Source: an uncultured delta proteobacterium
GTDB lineage: Bacteria; Desulfobacterota; Binatia; UBA9968
Length of the DNA: 64,000 nt
NCBI GenBank assembly: GCA_963771465.1
Contig: CAVYTU010000013.1
Location: 128,001 to 192,000, forward strand
Reading direction: 5' to 3'
Of the stretch, positions 20,856-63,024 are shown piece by piece; position 1 is the stretch's first letter; each line of letters opens with the position of its first letter. A program made the translations under genes and the position numbers. The notes under the pieces are model-generated. The model was not told the origin of the DNA. It saw only the letters and a program-made list of their open reading frames with translations, and made no database searches.

Positions 20856-20871
20856 CGGCACACCCATTGCT
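20856..20871 (+). promoter_or_regulatory. sigma54 promoter
   Basis: CGGCACACCCATTGCT (GG-N10-GC). Confidence 0.7.
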
Positions 20872-20909
20872 CTAAACAGGCGTGACTTCTCGCTCTCTCT
20901 GGAGAATGG

Positions 20910-21353
20910 ATGCTTAGAAACATAGAATCAGAGACTAAGCCTATCTCTCTTACCGTGATCGTTGCCGATAAACATCCCATTGCTCGGGCCGCACTCGCTA
21001 GTTTCTTGACGTATGACGGATATCGAGTGTTCCAAGCAGACAGTCTTGCCGCGGCTGTTTCCTATATCAATTACAATGAGAATCTCTCCGTACTCATTGC
21101 GGACCTCGAAATGCCGGACTGGAGATCGATTGTGCGACATGCGGTAAGGACAACCCATGCTCTGGTGATGGGCATGGAGGGGAATCATTCAATTCCCGAA
21201 ATGTATGACCTTCACGAGCACGGTCTTCGGCTCTGTTTGCAGAAACCGATCAACTACAATGACGTGCGCGGAGCGATTGAAAAGAATGTGTTACGTCCTC
21301 GTGTGCCAAAACTTGAATATGCGCATTGGTTCGGCTCCGCTGTAATGCATTGA
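20910..21353 (+). CDS. Single-domain response regulator
   Basis: IVADKH, LIADLEMP phosphoacceptor, QKP. Confidence 0.75.
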   Translation: MLRNIESETKPISLTVIVADKHPIARAALASFLTYDGYRVFQADSLAAAVSYINYNENLSVLIADLEMPDWRSIVRHAVRTTHALVMGMEGNHSIPEMYDLHEHGLRLCLQKPINYNDVRGAIEKNVLRPRVPKLEYAHWFGSAVMH

Positions 21354-21615
21354 AGGAATTCCGTCCGTTCTCATCGATTGCAACCACTTCCCCATCGATT
21401 AGCGTGTTTGGCGGCAGCTTTGCGCAAGCACTGGCGCCATCGCGGAACCGCGTTCGTGAATCCATTGTCCCGACGTGACCAGAGCGTAACGCCGCTGTAC
21501 TCGGCCGCAAGGCATCGGTAGCCATCAAGACTGGCCTCATAGCTGCCAGGGTCGCCGGATGGCAGCTCGGTAACGGCATGTGCGTACATCGGTTCGATGA
21601 ACGCCAGTTTAACTC
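21300..21615 (-). pseudogene. ligD: Remnant of a LigD-type ATP-dependent DNA ligase domain
   Basis: FIEPM...YEASLDGYR (catalytic K lost)...LWSRR, then a frameshift to LIDGEVVAIDENGRNSFNALQ; truncated. Confidence 0.75.
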
Positions 21616-21773
21616 GCGGTATTGTTGAAACTTCTATCCGAGCATTTAATTACAGCGGGAGATTGTGTTGATGGAATTTGAGATTTGATTCCCGCCGACT
21701 TGGATATCATGCCTGAGGCATAAATTTTCGCTAGGGCAATTCATCTTTTCAGGCGGCATGGCATTATAGAGGT

Positions 21774-22400
21774 ATGGGGAGAGTAACTAGAGACCTGGGC
21801 CTCTTTTCAATCTCGACAAAAGTTCCAGATGGATTCATTTATCGCCCAAGCTTTATCTCGGAGGCCGAAGAGCACGAACTTATTGGCGAGATTCAGAAAA
21901 TTAATCTTGCGCCGTTTAAATATTATCAATTTACAGGGAAGCGACGAACAGCTAGCTTTGGTTGGGAGTACGAGTTTGGCACGAGTGACATCACACCAAC
22001 TCGGGATCTGCCGGCATTTCTTCTACCATTCCGGAGACGCGCAGGACAGCTTTTCAACATTGATCCGAACGTCCTGGTTCAAGCATCCATTATTGAGTAT
22101 TCCATCGGCGCGCCGATCGGATGGCACCGGGACATTCCGCAGTTTGGCAATGCAATAGGCATTTCTCTTGGCGCGCCGTGCCGAATGAGGTTTCGCAAAT
22201 GTAGCCGCAACCGGTCGAAGGTTGGTCGTGATGAAATATTGTCAATCGAACTAGAACCGCGCTCAATTTATTTCATGAGCGGCGCGGCGCGAGAGATCTG
22301 GCAGCATTCAATACCGCCGGTGAAGGAGCTACGCTACTCGGTCGTGATGAGGACTCTGCGCGTGAAACCAAAACTTATAAAAGATAGAGATGGCGAATGA
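21774..22400 (+). CDS. AlkB-like 2OG-Fe(II) dioxygenase
   Basis: IGWHRD (HxD), GISLG, WQHSI and RYSVVMR motifs. Confidence 0.88.
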   Translation: MGRVTRDLGLFSISTKVPDGFIYRPSFISEAEEHELIGEIQKINLAPFKYYQFTGKRRTASFGWEYEFGTSDITPTRDLPAFLLPFRRRAGQLFNIDPNVLVQASIIEYSIGAPIGWHRDIPQFGNAIGISLGAPCRMRFRKCSRNRSKVGRDEILSIELEPRSIYFMSGAAREIWQHSIPPVKELRYSVVMRTLRVKPKLIKDRDGE

Positions 22401-22919
22401 TGCCCGGGTCGGGTGTGGTGCTAGCAGCCGGAGTTCTCATACTCACCCATCGCCGATAATTATTCAGTTGAAAATCGCAGCCCTGGTGCTAGCTAACGGT
22501 TCGACAATTCCATCACTAGTCGATAACTTCGGGTGGCGGGGGCGTTCGGAATGAACCTTCATCTCTCGAGGTATTAGGTCGCAAGGATTTTCAGACCGCA
22601 GAGCAGCAACCCAGGAGCGTGCTGACGCGGTGGTCTTGTTGCAAAACGGTGTCGCTGCTGCTCACCGGACAGAGATTGCAGAATTTGCAATAAGGAAAAG
22701 GTTTTTTCGTCAGCCTTCTTGGCTTCCTACCTTCGCTGTCATGGGAGTTCACGTCCGCAAGGAATTATTTGGATATTTTACATTGCACAACATTTGTTCG
22801 GCGAAGCGGTAGAGATAAAGGGTCTACTCCTGCATTTGACATGAACGTTGGTAATAGAAGAAACTATGCCGAATAATATCTGATTTGCAGAAACTAGGTT
22901 TGAGAAAAAGGGGCTGTTT

Positions 22920-61051: not shown

Positions 61052-61068
61052 GAGAGGAGGTCTTGATC

Positions 61069-61740
61069 ATGGTATTGGAAACGACATTCCGCGATGAGCG
61101 CGCCTTAGAGGAAAAAAAGTTGTCGCCCAGCAATTTGCTCGATACAGTTATAAGTTATTTTCGCGCGCACGGCGGTGAAATGACTAAGGCGGTCGGCCGT
61201 TTTGCGAAAGACCATCCCGCAGTGGCTCTCATGGGTGTCGGCGTCGCCTGGATATTATTAACGCCAAAATCTGCCAACGACTTGGAACGCGATGGGTCCG
61301 TTTCTGGCCGCGACGGTCAGGAGGACGCGACTGAGGAGTATGCGGGCAATCGAAGCACCAGCAAAGCAGGCGACGAATCGATAGAGGGCAACCCTTCAAC
61401 GATCGGCGCTGCCAAAGAGCGCGTGAGCTCGGTCGCGCGGCACGCTGTCAAACGGGCGCAATCACAGACCGAACCCCTGACGCGCGGGCTGAGGGTTATT
61501 GCCCAAGAGCAGCCGTTCTTGCTCGCTGCCATAGGAATGGCCATCGGTGCTGCTATTGGCGCGGCATTGCCGGAGAGCGAACCCGAGCATCGCTGGCTCG
61601 GTCCGGCGCGTGATCGGACGTTGGGCAAAATAAAAGCAGAGGGCGAACATGCCTATGAGCAAGTGCGCGGCGCCACTCAACGAGCGGTCGAGGGCGTCAA
61701 GCAGGCGGTGTGGGAAGTGGCGACGGGAAGTAAAAATTGA
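61069..61740 (+). CDS. DUF3618-associated / LEA-like stress protein
   Basis: KDHPAVALMGVGVAW and EQPFLLAAIGMAIGAAIGAALP.SE.E...LG..RD motifs. Confidence 0.75.
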   Translation: MVLETTFRDERALEEKKLSPSNLLDTVISYFRAHGGEMTKAVGRFAKDHPAVALMGVGVAWILLTPKSANDLERDGSVSGRDGQEDATEEYAGNRSTSKAGDESIEGNPSTIGAAKERVSSVARHAVKRAQSQTEPLTRGLRVIAQEQPFLLAAIGMAIGAAIGAALPESEPEHRWLGPARDRTLGKIKAEGEHAYEQVRGATQRAVEGVKQAVWEVATGSKN

Positions 61741-61815
61741 AAGACTTAAAACGCCGCCGGTGTCCGAGGCACCCAAGGATTTCCACACCGGAACCGTCTT
61801 AAGATCGTTCGACCG

Positions 61816-62805
61816 ATGGCTTTTTCTTCTCGCGGGCAGAGTCAGCGTGCCGGCACGTTTGAAACTGACCGCAAACCGAACCAAGCTGTTCTCCGGCCAA
61901 AGTTAACGGCGCTCAGAGAGGTTTTCGAATTCGGCGGCCTTAGTTGGAAAGAGCTTGGTAGGCGGGTCATTGCCGGTGTTCAGAGGACCGACTGCTCTGG
62001 CTACGCCGCGGCGCTCGCTTACTATTTTTTATTTTCCTTGTTTCCCTTCCTGATATTTCTCACCGCGCTGCTGGCCTATTTGCCGCTCGGCGATTGGTTC
62101 GAACAGGTGATCGCCCTACTGGCGCGGTTCATGCCAGGCGCGGCTCTGGAGCTGGTGCGCGATTATCTAAGCGTTCTGCTTTCCCAACAGCGCGGTGGCT
62201 TACTGTCGTTCGGGATTCTAATCGCGCTCTGGACCGCCTCAAACGGAATGTCGGCGATATCGGGCGCTCTCAATCACGCCTACGGAGTGGAAGAGGGACG
62301 GCCGTTTTGGAAAGTGCGCGCTATGGCGATTCTGTTAACGGTCGGATTGTCGATCTTTCTCATCGCCTCGATCGTGTTGCTGATTTTTGGCCCGCAGATC
62401 GGCGGTTATATCGCCAATTGGATGGGACTGGGGACGGTGTTCGAAATCGGTTGGAATATCTTGCGCTGGCCGGTCATCTTGATCCTGGTTACGACCGCGA
62501 TCGCGGCGATTTATTACTTTGCCCCGGACGTCGAACAACAGTGGAAATGGATCGCTCCGGGTTCGCTGTTCGCGGTAATCCTGTGGACCATCCTTTCTTT
62601 GGGTTTTTCTTACTATGTGAATAATTTCGGCTCCTATGACAAAACCTACGGCAGTATCGGCGCGATCATCGTTATGCTCACATGGATGTACGCCAGCGGA
62701 TTCGTCATTCTCGTCGGCGGCGAAATCAATGCTGAGATCGAGCACGCGAGCGCGGGAGGCAAAAACCCTGGGGAGAAGCAGACGCCAGACAGCGTAATGG
62801 CATAA
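61816..62805 (+). CDS. YihY/BrkB family membrane protein
   Basis: AAALAYYFLFSLFP and YDKTYGSIGAIIVMLTW motifs. Confidence 0.92.
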   Translation: MAFSSRGQSQRAGTFETDRKPNQAVLRPKLTALREVFEFGGLSWKELGRRVIAGVQRTDCSGYAAALAYYFLFSLFPFLIFLTALLAYLPLGDWFEQVIALLARFMPGAALELVRDYLSVLLSQQRGGLLSFGILIALWTASNGMSAISGALNHAYGVEEGRPFWKVRAMAILLTVGLSIFLIASIVLLIFGPQIGGYIANWMGLGTVFEIGWNILRWPVILILVTTAIAAIYYFAPDVEQQWKWIAPGSLFAVILWTILSLGFSYYVNNFGSYDKTYGSIGAIIVMLTWMYASGFVILVGGEINAEIEHASAGGKNPGEKQTPDSVMA

Positions 62806-63008
62806 GTAATAGATTTGCTCTGGCTTCCTTAAATAAGATGAACAATGCCAATTTTTCTAGTTTCCGCTTTTTAAATGCGCCGGGTGAGATTTGCGCTAAA
62901 TCCTATCGTTGACACGCCATCACTTGGTATCTGTCCTAAAACTGCAACAGCGCAATTGACTCAAGGCGGATTTCGCTCGGTTAACGTGCTTCTTTGGAGA
63001 CCCTTAGT

Positions 63009-63024
63009 GGGTATGCCCTTTGCG
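63009..63024 (+). promoter_or_regulatory. sigma54 promoter
   Basis: GGGTATGCCCTTTGCG; 18-bp site TGTCCTAAAACTGCAACA at 62932. Confidence 0.7.

Follow-up and report, generated by a model that had tools for sequence, protein, structure and literature searches.

General stress responses come in three textbook architectures, built on RpoS, SigB or EcfG-PhyR, all of which rely on sigma factors of the sigma-70 family. Here we describe an island of general-stress-type genes in a soil-dwelling, uncultured delta proteobacterium with affinity to Binatia that appears to be wired to sigma-54 (RpoN). The island lies on contig CAVYTU010000013.1 (assembly GCA_963771465.1), of which positions 128,001 to 192,000 were analysed (64,000 nucleotides (nt); hereafter the window). 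It runs from a tRNA-Val gene to the window end and ~45 kb beyond and comprises ~20 units, most of which are probably driven by sigma-54 together with the island's own activator. That the island units carry predicted sigma-54 promoters (-24 GG / -12 GC) is established as far as sequence goes; that the programme answers many stresses, and is in this sense 'general', is suggested by gene content only.

Predicted sigma-54 promoters in a stress-gene island

An earlier note on this DNA, made from the letters alone, had listed 23 GG-N10-GC elements, each said to be correctly oriented upstream of a transcription unit. In 23 of 23 the GG and GC lie exactly 10 nt apart with TTGC at -12, and all 23 point to a same-strand start codon ~14-100 nt downstream (minus-strand starts in that note sit 1 base below the 15-mer starts used here). 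We scanned for the consensus TGGCAC-N5-TTGC, allowing at most one mismatch unless stated, and used 100 dinucleotide-preserving shuffles of the 64-kb window as background. The window holds 21 matches, compared with 4.97 +/- 2.53 in the shuffles (largest 15; 0/100 reach 21), so the motif is denser than in shuffled DNA, a comparison on which the earlier note had staked its idea. Sixteen of the 23 elements belong to this strong class (20856, 24898, 25577, 28179, 29606, 29797, 30928, 31586, 40363, 40564, 41988, 42206, 47493, 50813, 52413 and 60496). The five matches missing from the earlier list, a number equal to the chance prediction, fall at 17160 and 17443 (antisense within an open reading frame (ORF)), 41248 and 41278 (in a 15-nt coding repeat) and 63488 (within an ORF). 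The repeat, at 41248-41418 in a PG_binding_1 gene, is periodic and yields opposite-strand, TGGAACC...CTTGC-like false sigma-54 matches.

The excess depends on the spacer: N4 gave 7 matches against 5.15 expected and N6 gave 5 against 5.03, both at chance level. Sequences flanking the window's elements are mutually unrelated. Across the genome (6.9 Mb, 19 contigs), 421 matches with GG and GC fixed correspond to 0.61 per 10 kb, and the 18 matches in the 42.3-kb island to 4.3 per 10 kb. In the density comparison that the earlier note had suggested, the island ranks first among 1,230 sliding 42-kb windows of the genome at up to one mismatch. Outside crudely called coding sequence, which covers ~88-91% of contigs before 150 nt are trimmed off each 5' end, lie 195 of the 421 matches. 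Left of the tRNA-Val there are no intergenic matches at up to one mismatch, in agreement with the earlier note. Two further clusters of the motif, with up to 13 per 42 kb, lie at C13:390-428 kb and C15:510-572 kb of the same genome.

The remaining seven elements carry two or three mismatches (31791, 36891, 52605, 53120, 59953, 60359 and 63009). At up to two mismatches the window holds 84 matches against 70.0 +/- 8.8 in shuffles, 6 of 100 of which reach 84, and there is no clear excess; these seven elements therefore rest on position, orientation and, in three of seven cases, an enhancer site, and not on the motif alone.

Pfam was run on 40 island ORFs. Behind the elements stand a CsbD-YtxH-DUF948 operon, two BON proteins, three YflT proteins (one a CBS fusion), a ferritin-like protein and DUF892, together with two hemerythrins, two BrkB/YihY proteins, DUF3309, DUF1003, PG_binding_1, a GT4 glycosyltransferase, a PLD-like and DUF748/AsmA-like pair, two AI-2E transporters with B12-binding matches and several proteins without a family. 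What defines a general stress regulon by content, hallmark protective families under apparently shared control, is thus found here. The stress families named in the earlier note were recovered by Pfam, which identifies CsbD, YtxH, DUF948, BON, YflT, ferritin-like, DUF892, hemerythrin, BrkB and a large catalase. The catalase gene (katE) has no element of its own.

The predicted promoters and the genes around them are given below; elements come from the consensus scan and read-out, genes from Pfam, and the enhancer (UAS) sites listed in the next section from a 20-nt matrix trained on relatives, scored in bits.

18965..19041 (+): tRNA-Val (CAC), the island's left edge (ARAGORN)
20856..20870 (+): promoter CGGCAC-N5-TTGC, 39 nt before the single-domain response regulator 20910-21353
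24898..24912 (-): promoter TGGCAC-N5-TTGC (0 mismatches), before the operon 24862-23805 for two proteins without Pfam family
25577..25591 (+): promoter TGGTAC-N5-TTGC of the activator gene
27021..28134 (-): operon of CsbD (28134-27928), YtxH (27831-27490) and DUF948 (27461-27021) (Pfam)
28179..28193 (-): promoter GGGCAC-N5-TTGC of the csbD operon
28797..29564 (-): secreted DUF1942-like protein (Pfam)
29606..29620 (-): promoter TGGCAC-N5-TTGC (0 mismatches) of the DUF1942-like gene
29797..29811 (+): promoter TGGCAT-N5-TTGC of the ferritin-like gene 29866-30414
30687..30839 (-): DUF3309 membrane peptide (Pfam)
30928..30942 (-): promoter TGGCAT-N5-TTGC before DUF3309
31233..31541 (-): BON-domain lipoprotein, OsmY-like (Pfam)
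31586..31600 (-): promoter TGGCGC-N5-TTGC of the BON gene
31791..31805 (+): weak element TGGTTT-N5-TTGC (3 mismatches), its only support being position and a shared enhancer site
31827..36774 (+): operon of an AI-2E transporter with B12-binding match, a MetE-like protein and a PAS-PAS hybrid histidine kinase (34750-36774) (Pfam)
36891..36905 (-): doubtful element TGGCCG-N5-TTGC before a 34-codon ORF
37010..40347 (-): PLD/cardiolipin-synthase-like gene (two frames) and DUF748/AsmA-like gene (Pfam)
40363..40377 (-): promoter TGGCGC-N5-TTGC before the PLD operon
40564..40578 (+): promoter TGGCAT-N5-TTGC before membrane protein 40613-40885
41988..42002 (-): promoter TGGCAT-N5-TTGC before PG_binding_1 protein 41932-41237
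42206..42220 (+): promoter TGGCAT-N5-TTGC before GT4 glycosyltransferase 42295-43371
47493..47507 (+): promoter TGGCAC-N5-TTGC (0 mismatches), before BON (47545-47949), YflT (47973-48536) and possibly AI-2E/B12 (48862-50679)
50813..50827 (+): promoter TGGTAC-N5-TTGC before YflT 50927-51262
52413..52427 (-): promoter TGGCAT-N5-TTGC before BrkB/YihY 51445-52383
52605..52619 (+): weak element TGGTGT-N5-TTGC before hemerythrin ORF 52666-52842
53120..53134 (+): element CGGCAT-N5-TTGC before DUF1003, CBS+YflT, a hypothetical protein and DUF892 (to 55696)
56034..59279 (+): large-subunit catalase (KatE type, 821 aa) and DUF6766, without a -24/-12 element of their own (Pfam)
59953..59967 (-): weak element TGGTCC-N5-TTGC before hemerythrin 59906-59457
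60359..60373 (-): weak element TGGTCT-N5-TTGC before the 79-aa ORF 60309-60070
60496..60510 (+): promoter TGGCAT-N5-TTGC before two hypothetical genes and BrkB 61816-62805
63009..63023 (+): weak element GGGTAT-N5-TTGC, supported by a strong enhancer site, before ORFs 63091-63762, which we take, from their sequence, to be rhodanese-like

A candidate activator and its proposed enhancer palindrome

The island encodes an NtrC-type response-regulator activator behind its own predicted sigma-54 promoter, a feature new here. The protein at 25626-26981 comprises Response_reg (96 bits), Sigma54_activat (238 bits) and HTH_8 (48 bits) domains by Pfam, and its key motifs are intact: GESGVGKE (Walker A), GAFTGA and LLDLKMP (acceptor Asp context). 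None of the NCBIfam equivalogs compared (AtoC, NtrC, ZraR, GlrR, PspF and others) is over cut-off, the best being AtoC with 456 against 714.

Relatives of the activator at 62-93% identity were taken with their flanks (next-best proteins, <=45% identity); they come from records labelled uncultured delta proteobacterium, Candidatus Binatia and Thermodesulfobacteriota, with a few implausible bin labels. A sigma-54 promoter 47-179 nt before the start, together with one or two palindromes TGTCCY-N6-RGGACA, recurs upstream of these orthologs. In a quick maximum-likelihood tree of 51 proteins (>=400 aa required, which left out L007 at 363 aa), the window's activator falls within a clade of 19 rows (SH-aLRT 99), and promoter and palindrome are both found upstream in 15 of these 19, one further row having no upstream sequence. 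Among the 32 rows outside the clade, which include the genome's own 60%-identical paralog C13:418909, a promoter occurs in one and a palindrome in one, and paralogous activators at 53-63% identity have neither upstream. That paralogous group also makes up most of a class-wide protein-search tally of '133 of 151 genomes', which we therefore discarded as a measure of how far the system has spread. The C13:390-428 kb motif cluster lies near the 60%-identical paralog.

The palindrome would link the activator to the promoters. A 20-nt matrix was derived from 19 sites at 12 loci of relatives, with none taken from the window; scores are circular for the 12 training loci and independent for the window, L005, L006, L010 and L110. 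Within 250 nt upstream, 15 of 23 island promoters have a site of at least 8 bits, as do 0.8% of 3,000 random 235-nt genome segments; at 10 bits or more the figures are 14 of 23 and 0.37%. Four divergent promoter pairs share one site each, so the 15 promoters are served by 11 distinct sites. Over the whole window the matrix gave 29 strand hits at 19 positions, compared with 6.25 +/- 3.4 in 20 shuffles. Two simpler searches were not significant alone: a k-mer count on upstream regions first gave TGGGACA (9 in the window, ~5 expected), and GTCCC-N6-GGGAC at two mismatches occurs 26 times against 22.4; the palindrome stood out only once the relatives' matrix was used. The activator and the sites are as follows.

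24982..25001: enhancer site GTGTCCCAAATTTGCGATGA, 79 nt upstream of the 24898 promoter, 13.6 bits
25486..25537: two enhancer palindromes, GTCCCAAATTCGGGAC (21.6 bits) and GTCCCGTAAATGAGAC (27.2 bits), upstream of the activator gene and conserved upstream of its orthologs
25626..26981 (+): NtrC-family enhancer-binding protein with receiver, AAA+ with GAFTGA, and HTH_8 (Pfam)
28263..28282: enhancer site 79 nt upstream of the csbD promoter, 10.0 bits
29697..29716: enhancer site common to the divergent promoters 29606(-)/29797(+), 11.6 bits
31011..31030: enhancer site 78 nt upstream of the 30928 promoter, 18.1 bits
31705..31724: enhancer site CTGTCCCAATCCCGCGACAT, common to 31586(-)/31791(+), 15.6 bits
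40408..40427: enhancer site TTGTCTTAGATACGCGACAA, common to 40363(-)/40564(+), 17.1 bits
42146..42165: enhancer site common to 41988(-)/42206(+), 16.9 bits
47393..47442: two enhancer-like sites (15.4 and 9.5 bits) upstream of the 47493 promoter
53020..53039: enhancer-like site 90 nt upstream of 53120, 11.4 bits
62931..62950: enhancer site CTGTCCTAAAACTGCAACAG, 68 nt upstream of 63009, 19.9 bits

The pairing extends beyond the window. Genome-wide, 34 of the 421 sigma-54 matches have a site of at least 10 bits (~1.5 expected), at distances mostly of 50-116 nt, and the strict pattern GTCCY-N6-RNGAC has 96 genome positions, 11 of which sit 20-300 nt upstream of a sigma-54 match (own chance estimate ~1.6). 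Promoter-enhancer pairs run on to ~C13:235 kb, 43 kb past the window end. Twenty out-of-window targets include, by Pfam, two CsbD proteins, DUF892, a 471-aa catalase (with a weaker -24 element, AGGCAT), CBS, PG_binding, DPBB, NTP_transferase and CBM48, and eight have no family. The C15:510-572 kb cluster contains CsbD, DUF892, catalase and PG_binding paralogs with enhancer sites.

Conservation of the target promoters, a check proposed in the earlier note, was assessed by seeking homologs of the island units' first genes in 21 relatives' loci, blind to motifs and with at least 120 nt of upstream sequence. An element with at most one mismatch precedes 10 of 20 homologs. By family, it is conserved for the ferritin (3/3; L002, L005, L007), the DUF1942-like protein (3/3; the 29606 element is kept in L002, L007 and L017), the 24251 protein (2/2; the 24898 element is kept in L002 and L007), YflT (1/1; the 50813 element, in L002) and DUF3309 (1/2). 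At this threshold the count is 0/3 for csbD, 0/1 each for BON and AI-2E, and 0/4 for hemerythrin (two loci, each matched by both queries). The csbD orthologs in L002, L004 and L007 carry GGGCAT-N5-TTTGC (2 mismatches) as far from the start as in the island, and TGTCCCA words lie upstream of it. Elements kept amid otherwise unalignable upstream DNA are the pattern expected of functional sites. An attempt to extend the csbD pattern to the wider phylum was dropped, with only 2 of 12 analysed loci of other genomes having an element at up to one mismatch, too few to build on.

Distant members of the clade have sigma-54 motifs before genes for BON, Hsp20, a universal stress protein, a ribosome-hibernation/cold-shock fusion and 2-oxoglutarate dehydrogenase E1; 4 of the 10 proteins scanned there have no family. 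The fusion, at L017:14686-15309 (-), joins a Ribosomal_S30AE hibernation factor to a cold-shock domain. The dehydrogenase E1 gene of L006, L015, L017 and L020 is divergent from the activator ortholog and has its own sigma-54 promoter, and in L006 and L017 the two genes have the activator's enhancer region in common.

The island is also represented in environmental data. Positions 24800-32000 were found in soil, rhizosphere and groundwater runs of 15 studies, among them six RNA libraries. RNA-library contigs (4 runs, 3 studies, >=93% identity) cover the csbD-ytxH-DUF948, ferritin-like, BON, PG_binding, kinase and activator genes, which is consistent with transcription of the island in nature. 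Being assembled contigs, these data give neither starts nor levels, and stretches without RNA cover were not used as evidence. Adapter-bearing contig ends near the csbD and BON start codons (28129/28133 and 31548) were not taken as transcript starts.

Regulatory logic and competing explanations

The proposal of the earlier note that RpoN and an enhancer-binding protein run this programme stands up to each comparison made: N5-specific spacing, placement, a single rpoN match (TIGR02395, 449.5 bits; cut-off 277), 35 Sigma54_activat matches in the genome, conservation before orthologs, and a candidate activator with its palindrome at 15 of 23 promoters. We propose the following mechanism. Sigma-54 holoenzyme does not open DNA by itself, so the units would be silent until an ATP-hydrolysing activator acts. 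For most units the comparative evidence points to the NtrC-family response regulator 25626-26981, which would bind TGTCCY-N6-RGGACA in dimeric or oligomeric form, at sites whose centres lie mostly 50-150 nt upstream of -24 and often between divergent promoters. It would also switch on its own gene, an autoregulation with positive feedback. As a guess, a phosphorelay acts via the receiver Asp, possibly through the PAS hybrid kinase 34750-36774, itself behind an island promoter. The regulon would also take in genes beyond the island, among them further copies of csbD, DUF892 and catalase as well as CBS and cell-wall genes.

Several observations weigh against this proposal. Seven of the 23 elements belong to the two- to three-mismatch class, which is not enriched overall. 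Eight of 23 promoters have no site of at least 8 bits (in the numbering of the earlier note, 20856, 36890, 50813, 52412, 52605, 59952, 60358 and 60496; scores are -1.0 within 250 nt of the first, -6.9 at the second and only 6.3 at the third), and binding of the activator to the palindrome is suggested by co-conservation only. The activator ortholog is absent from three same-genus genomes, so that even close kin do not all have the system, and the ortholog is missing from most of the sampled family. Control by sigma-54 does not extend to every stress gene, since of six csbD copies analysed in the genome two have an element at up to one mismatch and one more at two; BON and YtxH copies outside the window have none at up to one mismatch in a tblastn census, which is blurred by over-long ORF starts and operons and is used qualitatively. 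Within the island, the 338-nt gap before the catalase opens with a hairpin after DUF892 and holds no GG-N10-GC with TTGC, and neither GDE nor topoisomerase IB has a -24/-12 element. Contigs of RNA run X13 span promoters (25564-25973, 27345-28659 and 31531-32043), which may be DNA carry-over or read-through. A parallel or superior stress response could be run by other sigma factors of the genome, a 509-aa RpoD-like protein and ~12 of extracytoplasmic-function (ECF) size.

The first competing explanation accepts the wiring and disputes the word 'general': the island would be a specific programme for desiccation, osmotic protection or a resting state, resembling the SigB, RpoS and EcfG regulons through shared protective proteins only. 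Many members concern the envelope or compatible solutes (BON, PG_binding, PLD, DUF748/AsmA and GT4, to which GDE close by and the out-of-window NTP_transferase and CBM48 can be added), the relatives add Hsp20 and a ribosome hibernation factor, and the runs containing the island are from soil and rhizosphere. However, CsbD, YtxH, DUF948, YflT, DUF892 and ferritin define multi-stress regulons elsewhere (Bacillus SigB, E. coli RpoS), and we give this narrower programme a real but minority chance.

It is unlikely, in our judgement, that the promoters are genuine but divided among several activators, with the island's regulator running the palindrome subset only and no single 'general' switch. The eight promoters without a site are what such a division predicts, and another of the ~22 full-length activators among the 35 Sigma54_activat matches may serve them, including the 60%-identical paralog C13:418909, which adjoins another promoter cluster. 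Palindrome-less promoters also bear GTCTCA/TGAGAC words; yet GAGAC is the second half-site of the activator gene's best-scoring site, and the words may be weak sites of the same protein. One motif at 15 of 23 sites is, moreover, far above chance.

A lesser prospect, which we think distinctly improbable, is that sigma-54 is secondary and that the master is the second RpoD-like or an ECF sigma with its own promoters at island genes. The genome has 16 genes with Sigma70_r2: RpoD, the 509-aa RpoD-like protein, RpoH (over its subfamily cut-off), FliA and ~12 of ECF size. The earlier note had suggested a check for rpoS, sigB or ecfG, and the outcome is mixed. RpoS models reach at most 301 bits (the RpoD protein) and 261 (RpoD-like) against a cut-off of 378.7, SigB/F/G models at most 132 against 234, and the PhyR model matches receiver domains only, none over cut-off; the ~12 ECF-sized sigmas, however, are present. 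The 509-aa protein at C17:913685-916909 (L083) is under all NCBIfam equivalog cut-offs and is a candidate group-2 sigma. The katE gene, and those stress-gene copies elsewhere that are without sigma-54 elements, would also suit such a master. On the other side, the upstream k-mer count gave no second shared motif, and -24/-12 elements at the usual 30-100 nt before start codons leave little room for one. The sigma-70 consensus occurs 3 times in 52500-59500 against 4.5 expected, in a scan that we otherwise set aside as uninformative, terminators there numbering 14 against 10.2.

That the cluster reflects chance or a repeat family, as the near-chance count at up to two mismatches and the coding-repeat matches 41248 and 41278 might suggest, has a negligible probability, being already refuted by the shuffle, spacing, flank and ortholog controls as far as sequence can show.

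With sigma-54 and the island's own activator as the probable drivers of most units, a bolder form of the proposal can be stated, which we regard as possible but doubtful: that the general stress or dormancy response of this Binatia-related lineage has no dedicated sigma-70-family master and is run directly by sigma-54 and one autoregulated response-regulator activator, with most of it carried on a single tRNA-flanked island that relatives gain or lose as a unit.

The island shares content with known systems and differs from each in control. Bacillus subtilis SigB, an alternative sigma-70-family factor released by partner switching, likewise controls csbD, a ytxG (DUF948)-ytxH operon, yflT, katE and Dps/ferritin-like genes, dozens of small protective proteins together; the island instead has -24/-12 promoters that need an ATPase activator, and no SigB/F/G model is over cut-off. 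The enterobacterial RpoS regulon includes osmY (BON), yciF/yciE (DUF892), katE and dps, and is controlled by sigma competition and proteolysis, whereas control of the island would lie with an enhancer-dependent sigma. PspF/psp, RtcR/rtc, ZraR and NorR pair a sigma-54 promoter with a dedicated, often autoregulated and stress-responsive activator, but each serves one to few operons; the island has ~15 promoters, with 34 genome-wide sharing the enhancer motif, and its targets are classic general-stress families. CsbD, BON and catalase are targets of the EcfG system too, in which PhyR is an anti-anti-sigma factor, whereas the island's response regulator is itself a predicted transcriptional activator. 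The EcfG-NepR-PhyR system of Alphaproteobacteria resembles the island in its response-regulator input (PMC7083833, in the portion covered). In Borrelia, according to the portions of the sources covered, a response-regulator activator and sigma-54 likewise head a global adaptive programme (Rrp2-RpoN-RpoS), but sigma-54 there drives only rpoS, which reads the regulon; the island targets carry sigma-54 promoters themselves, and no RpoS was found. In Desulfovibrio vulgaris, the activator DVU3305 is tabled under 'general stress response' with two operons (PMC4641369, in the portion covered).

The earlier note held the architecture to be undescribed. Our literature search, which took in no supplementary tables, found no paper placing CsbD, YtxH, BON or KatE-type genes under sigma-54, and no precedent emerged from the portions covered of two large sigma-54 surveys (PMC3162934 and PMC12316311). 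Those portions make no mention of CsbD or catalase, and the supplements may list relevant predicted targets; the term 'general stress' is missing from that of PMC12316311 and is used in that of PMC3162934 only for SigB/RpoS, in background and references. The covered portion of the Binatota genome paper PMC8262859 makes no mention of sigma factors or catalase.

If general-stress genes are indeed on sigma-54, their basal expression would not leak, they would depend in an all-or-none manner on a phosphorylated ATPase, and positive feedback would operate. Sole mastery by sigma-54, if true, would be a fourth architecture beside RpoS, SigB and EcfG, strictly off without signal and dependent on ATP hydrolysis, and the system would open a first way into gene regulation in an uncultured soil lineage that is found worldwide. 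The pair of palindrome and promoter defines a testable regulon of ~30-50 promoters, which could be traced in metatranscriptomes of soil, for instance as it dries and is rewetted, and reconstructed in a host that grows in the laboratory.

Further features of the island

Island GC content is 0.535, compared with 0.557 for the genome. No integrase family was found among the 40 ORFs scanned against Pfam, and the tRNA-Val stands at the island edge. Synteny is partly preserved in L002, L007 and G238.

Some genes have unusual structures. Both AI-2E transporters, 31827-33629 and 48862-50679 (+), have C-terminal B12-binding matches, an unusual fusion, and both lie in sigma-54 units; the match is weak in the first and comprises B12-binding and B12-binding_2 in the second. 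The PLD gene is split into overlapping frames, 39535-40347 and 38745-39899 (-), with a PLD motif in each. One base is missing at 39624 in an RNA-library contig of run X18, so the frameshift may be an assembly error or a strain difference. The hemerythrin ORF 52666-52842 (+), behind a weak element, is only 58 aa long and may be truncated or frameshifted. At 36760-36905 (-), the doubtful GG-N10-GC element precedes the 34-codon ORF, which runs towards the hybrid kinase gene and meets its 3' end; this could be a small RNA, a peptide or nothing. Mid-island, a eukaryotic-type topoisomerase IB gene (45780-47237, +) is divergent from a GDE-like glycosidase gene. In the catalase at 56034-58499 (+), an N-terminal extension of ~150 aa with many Lys, Ser and Thr residues precedes the catalase domain, and the C15 paralog starts similarly.

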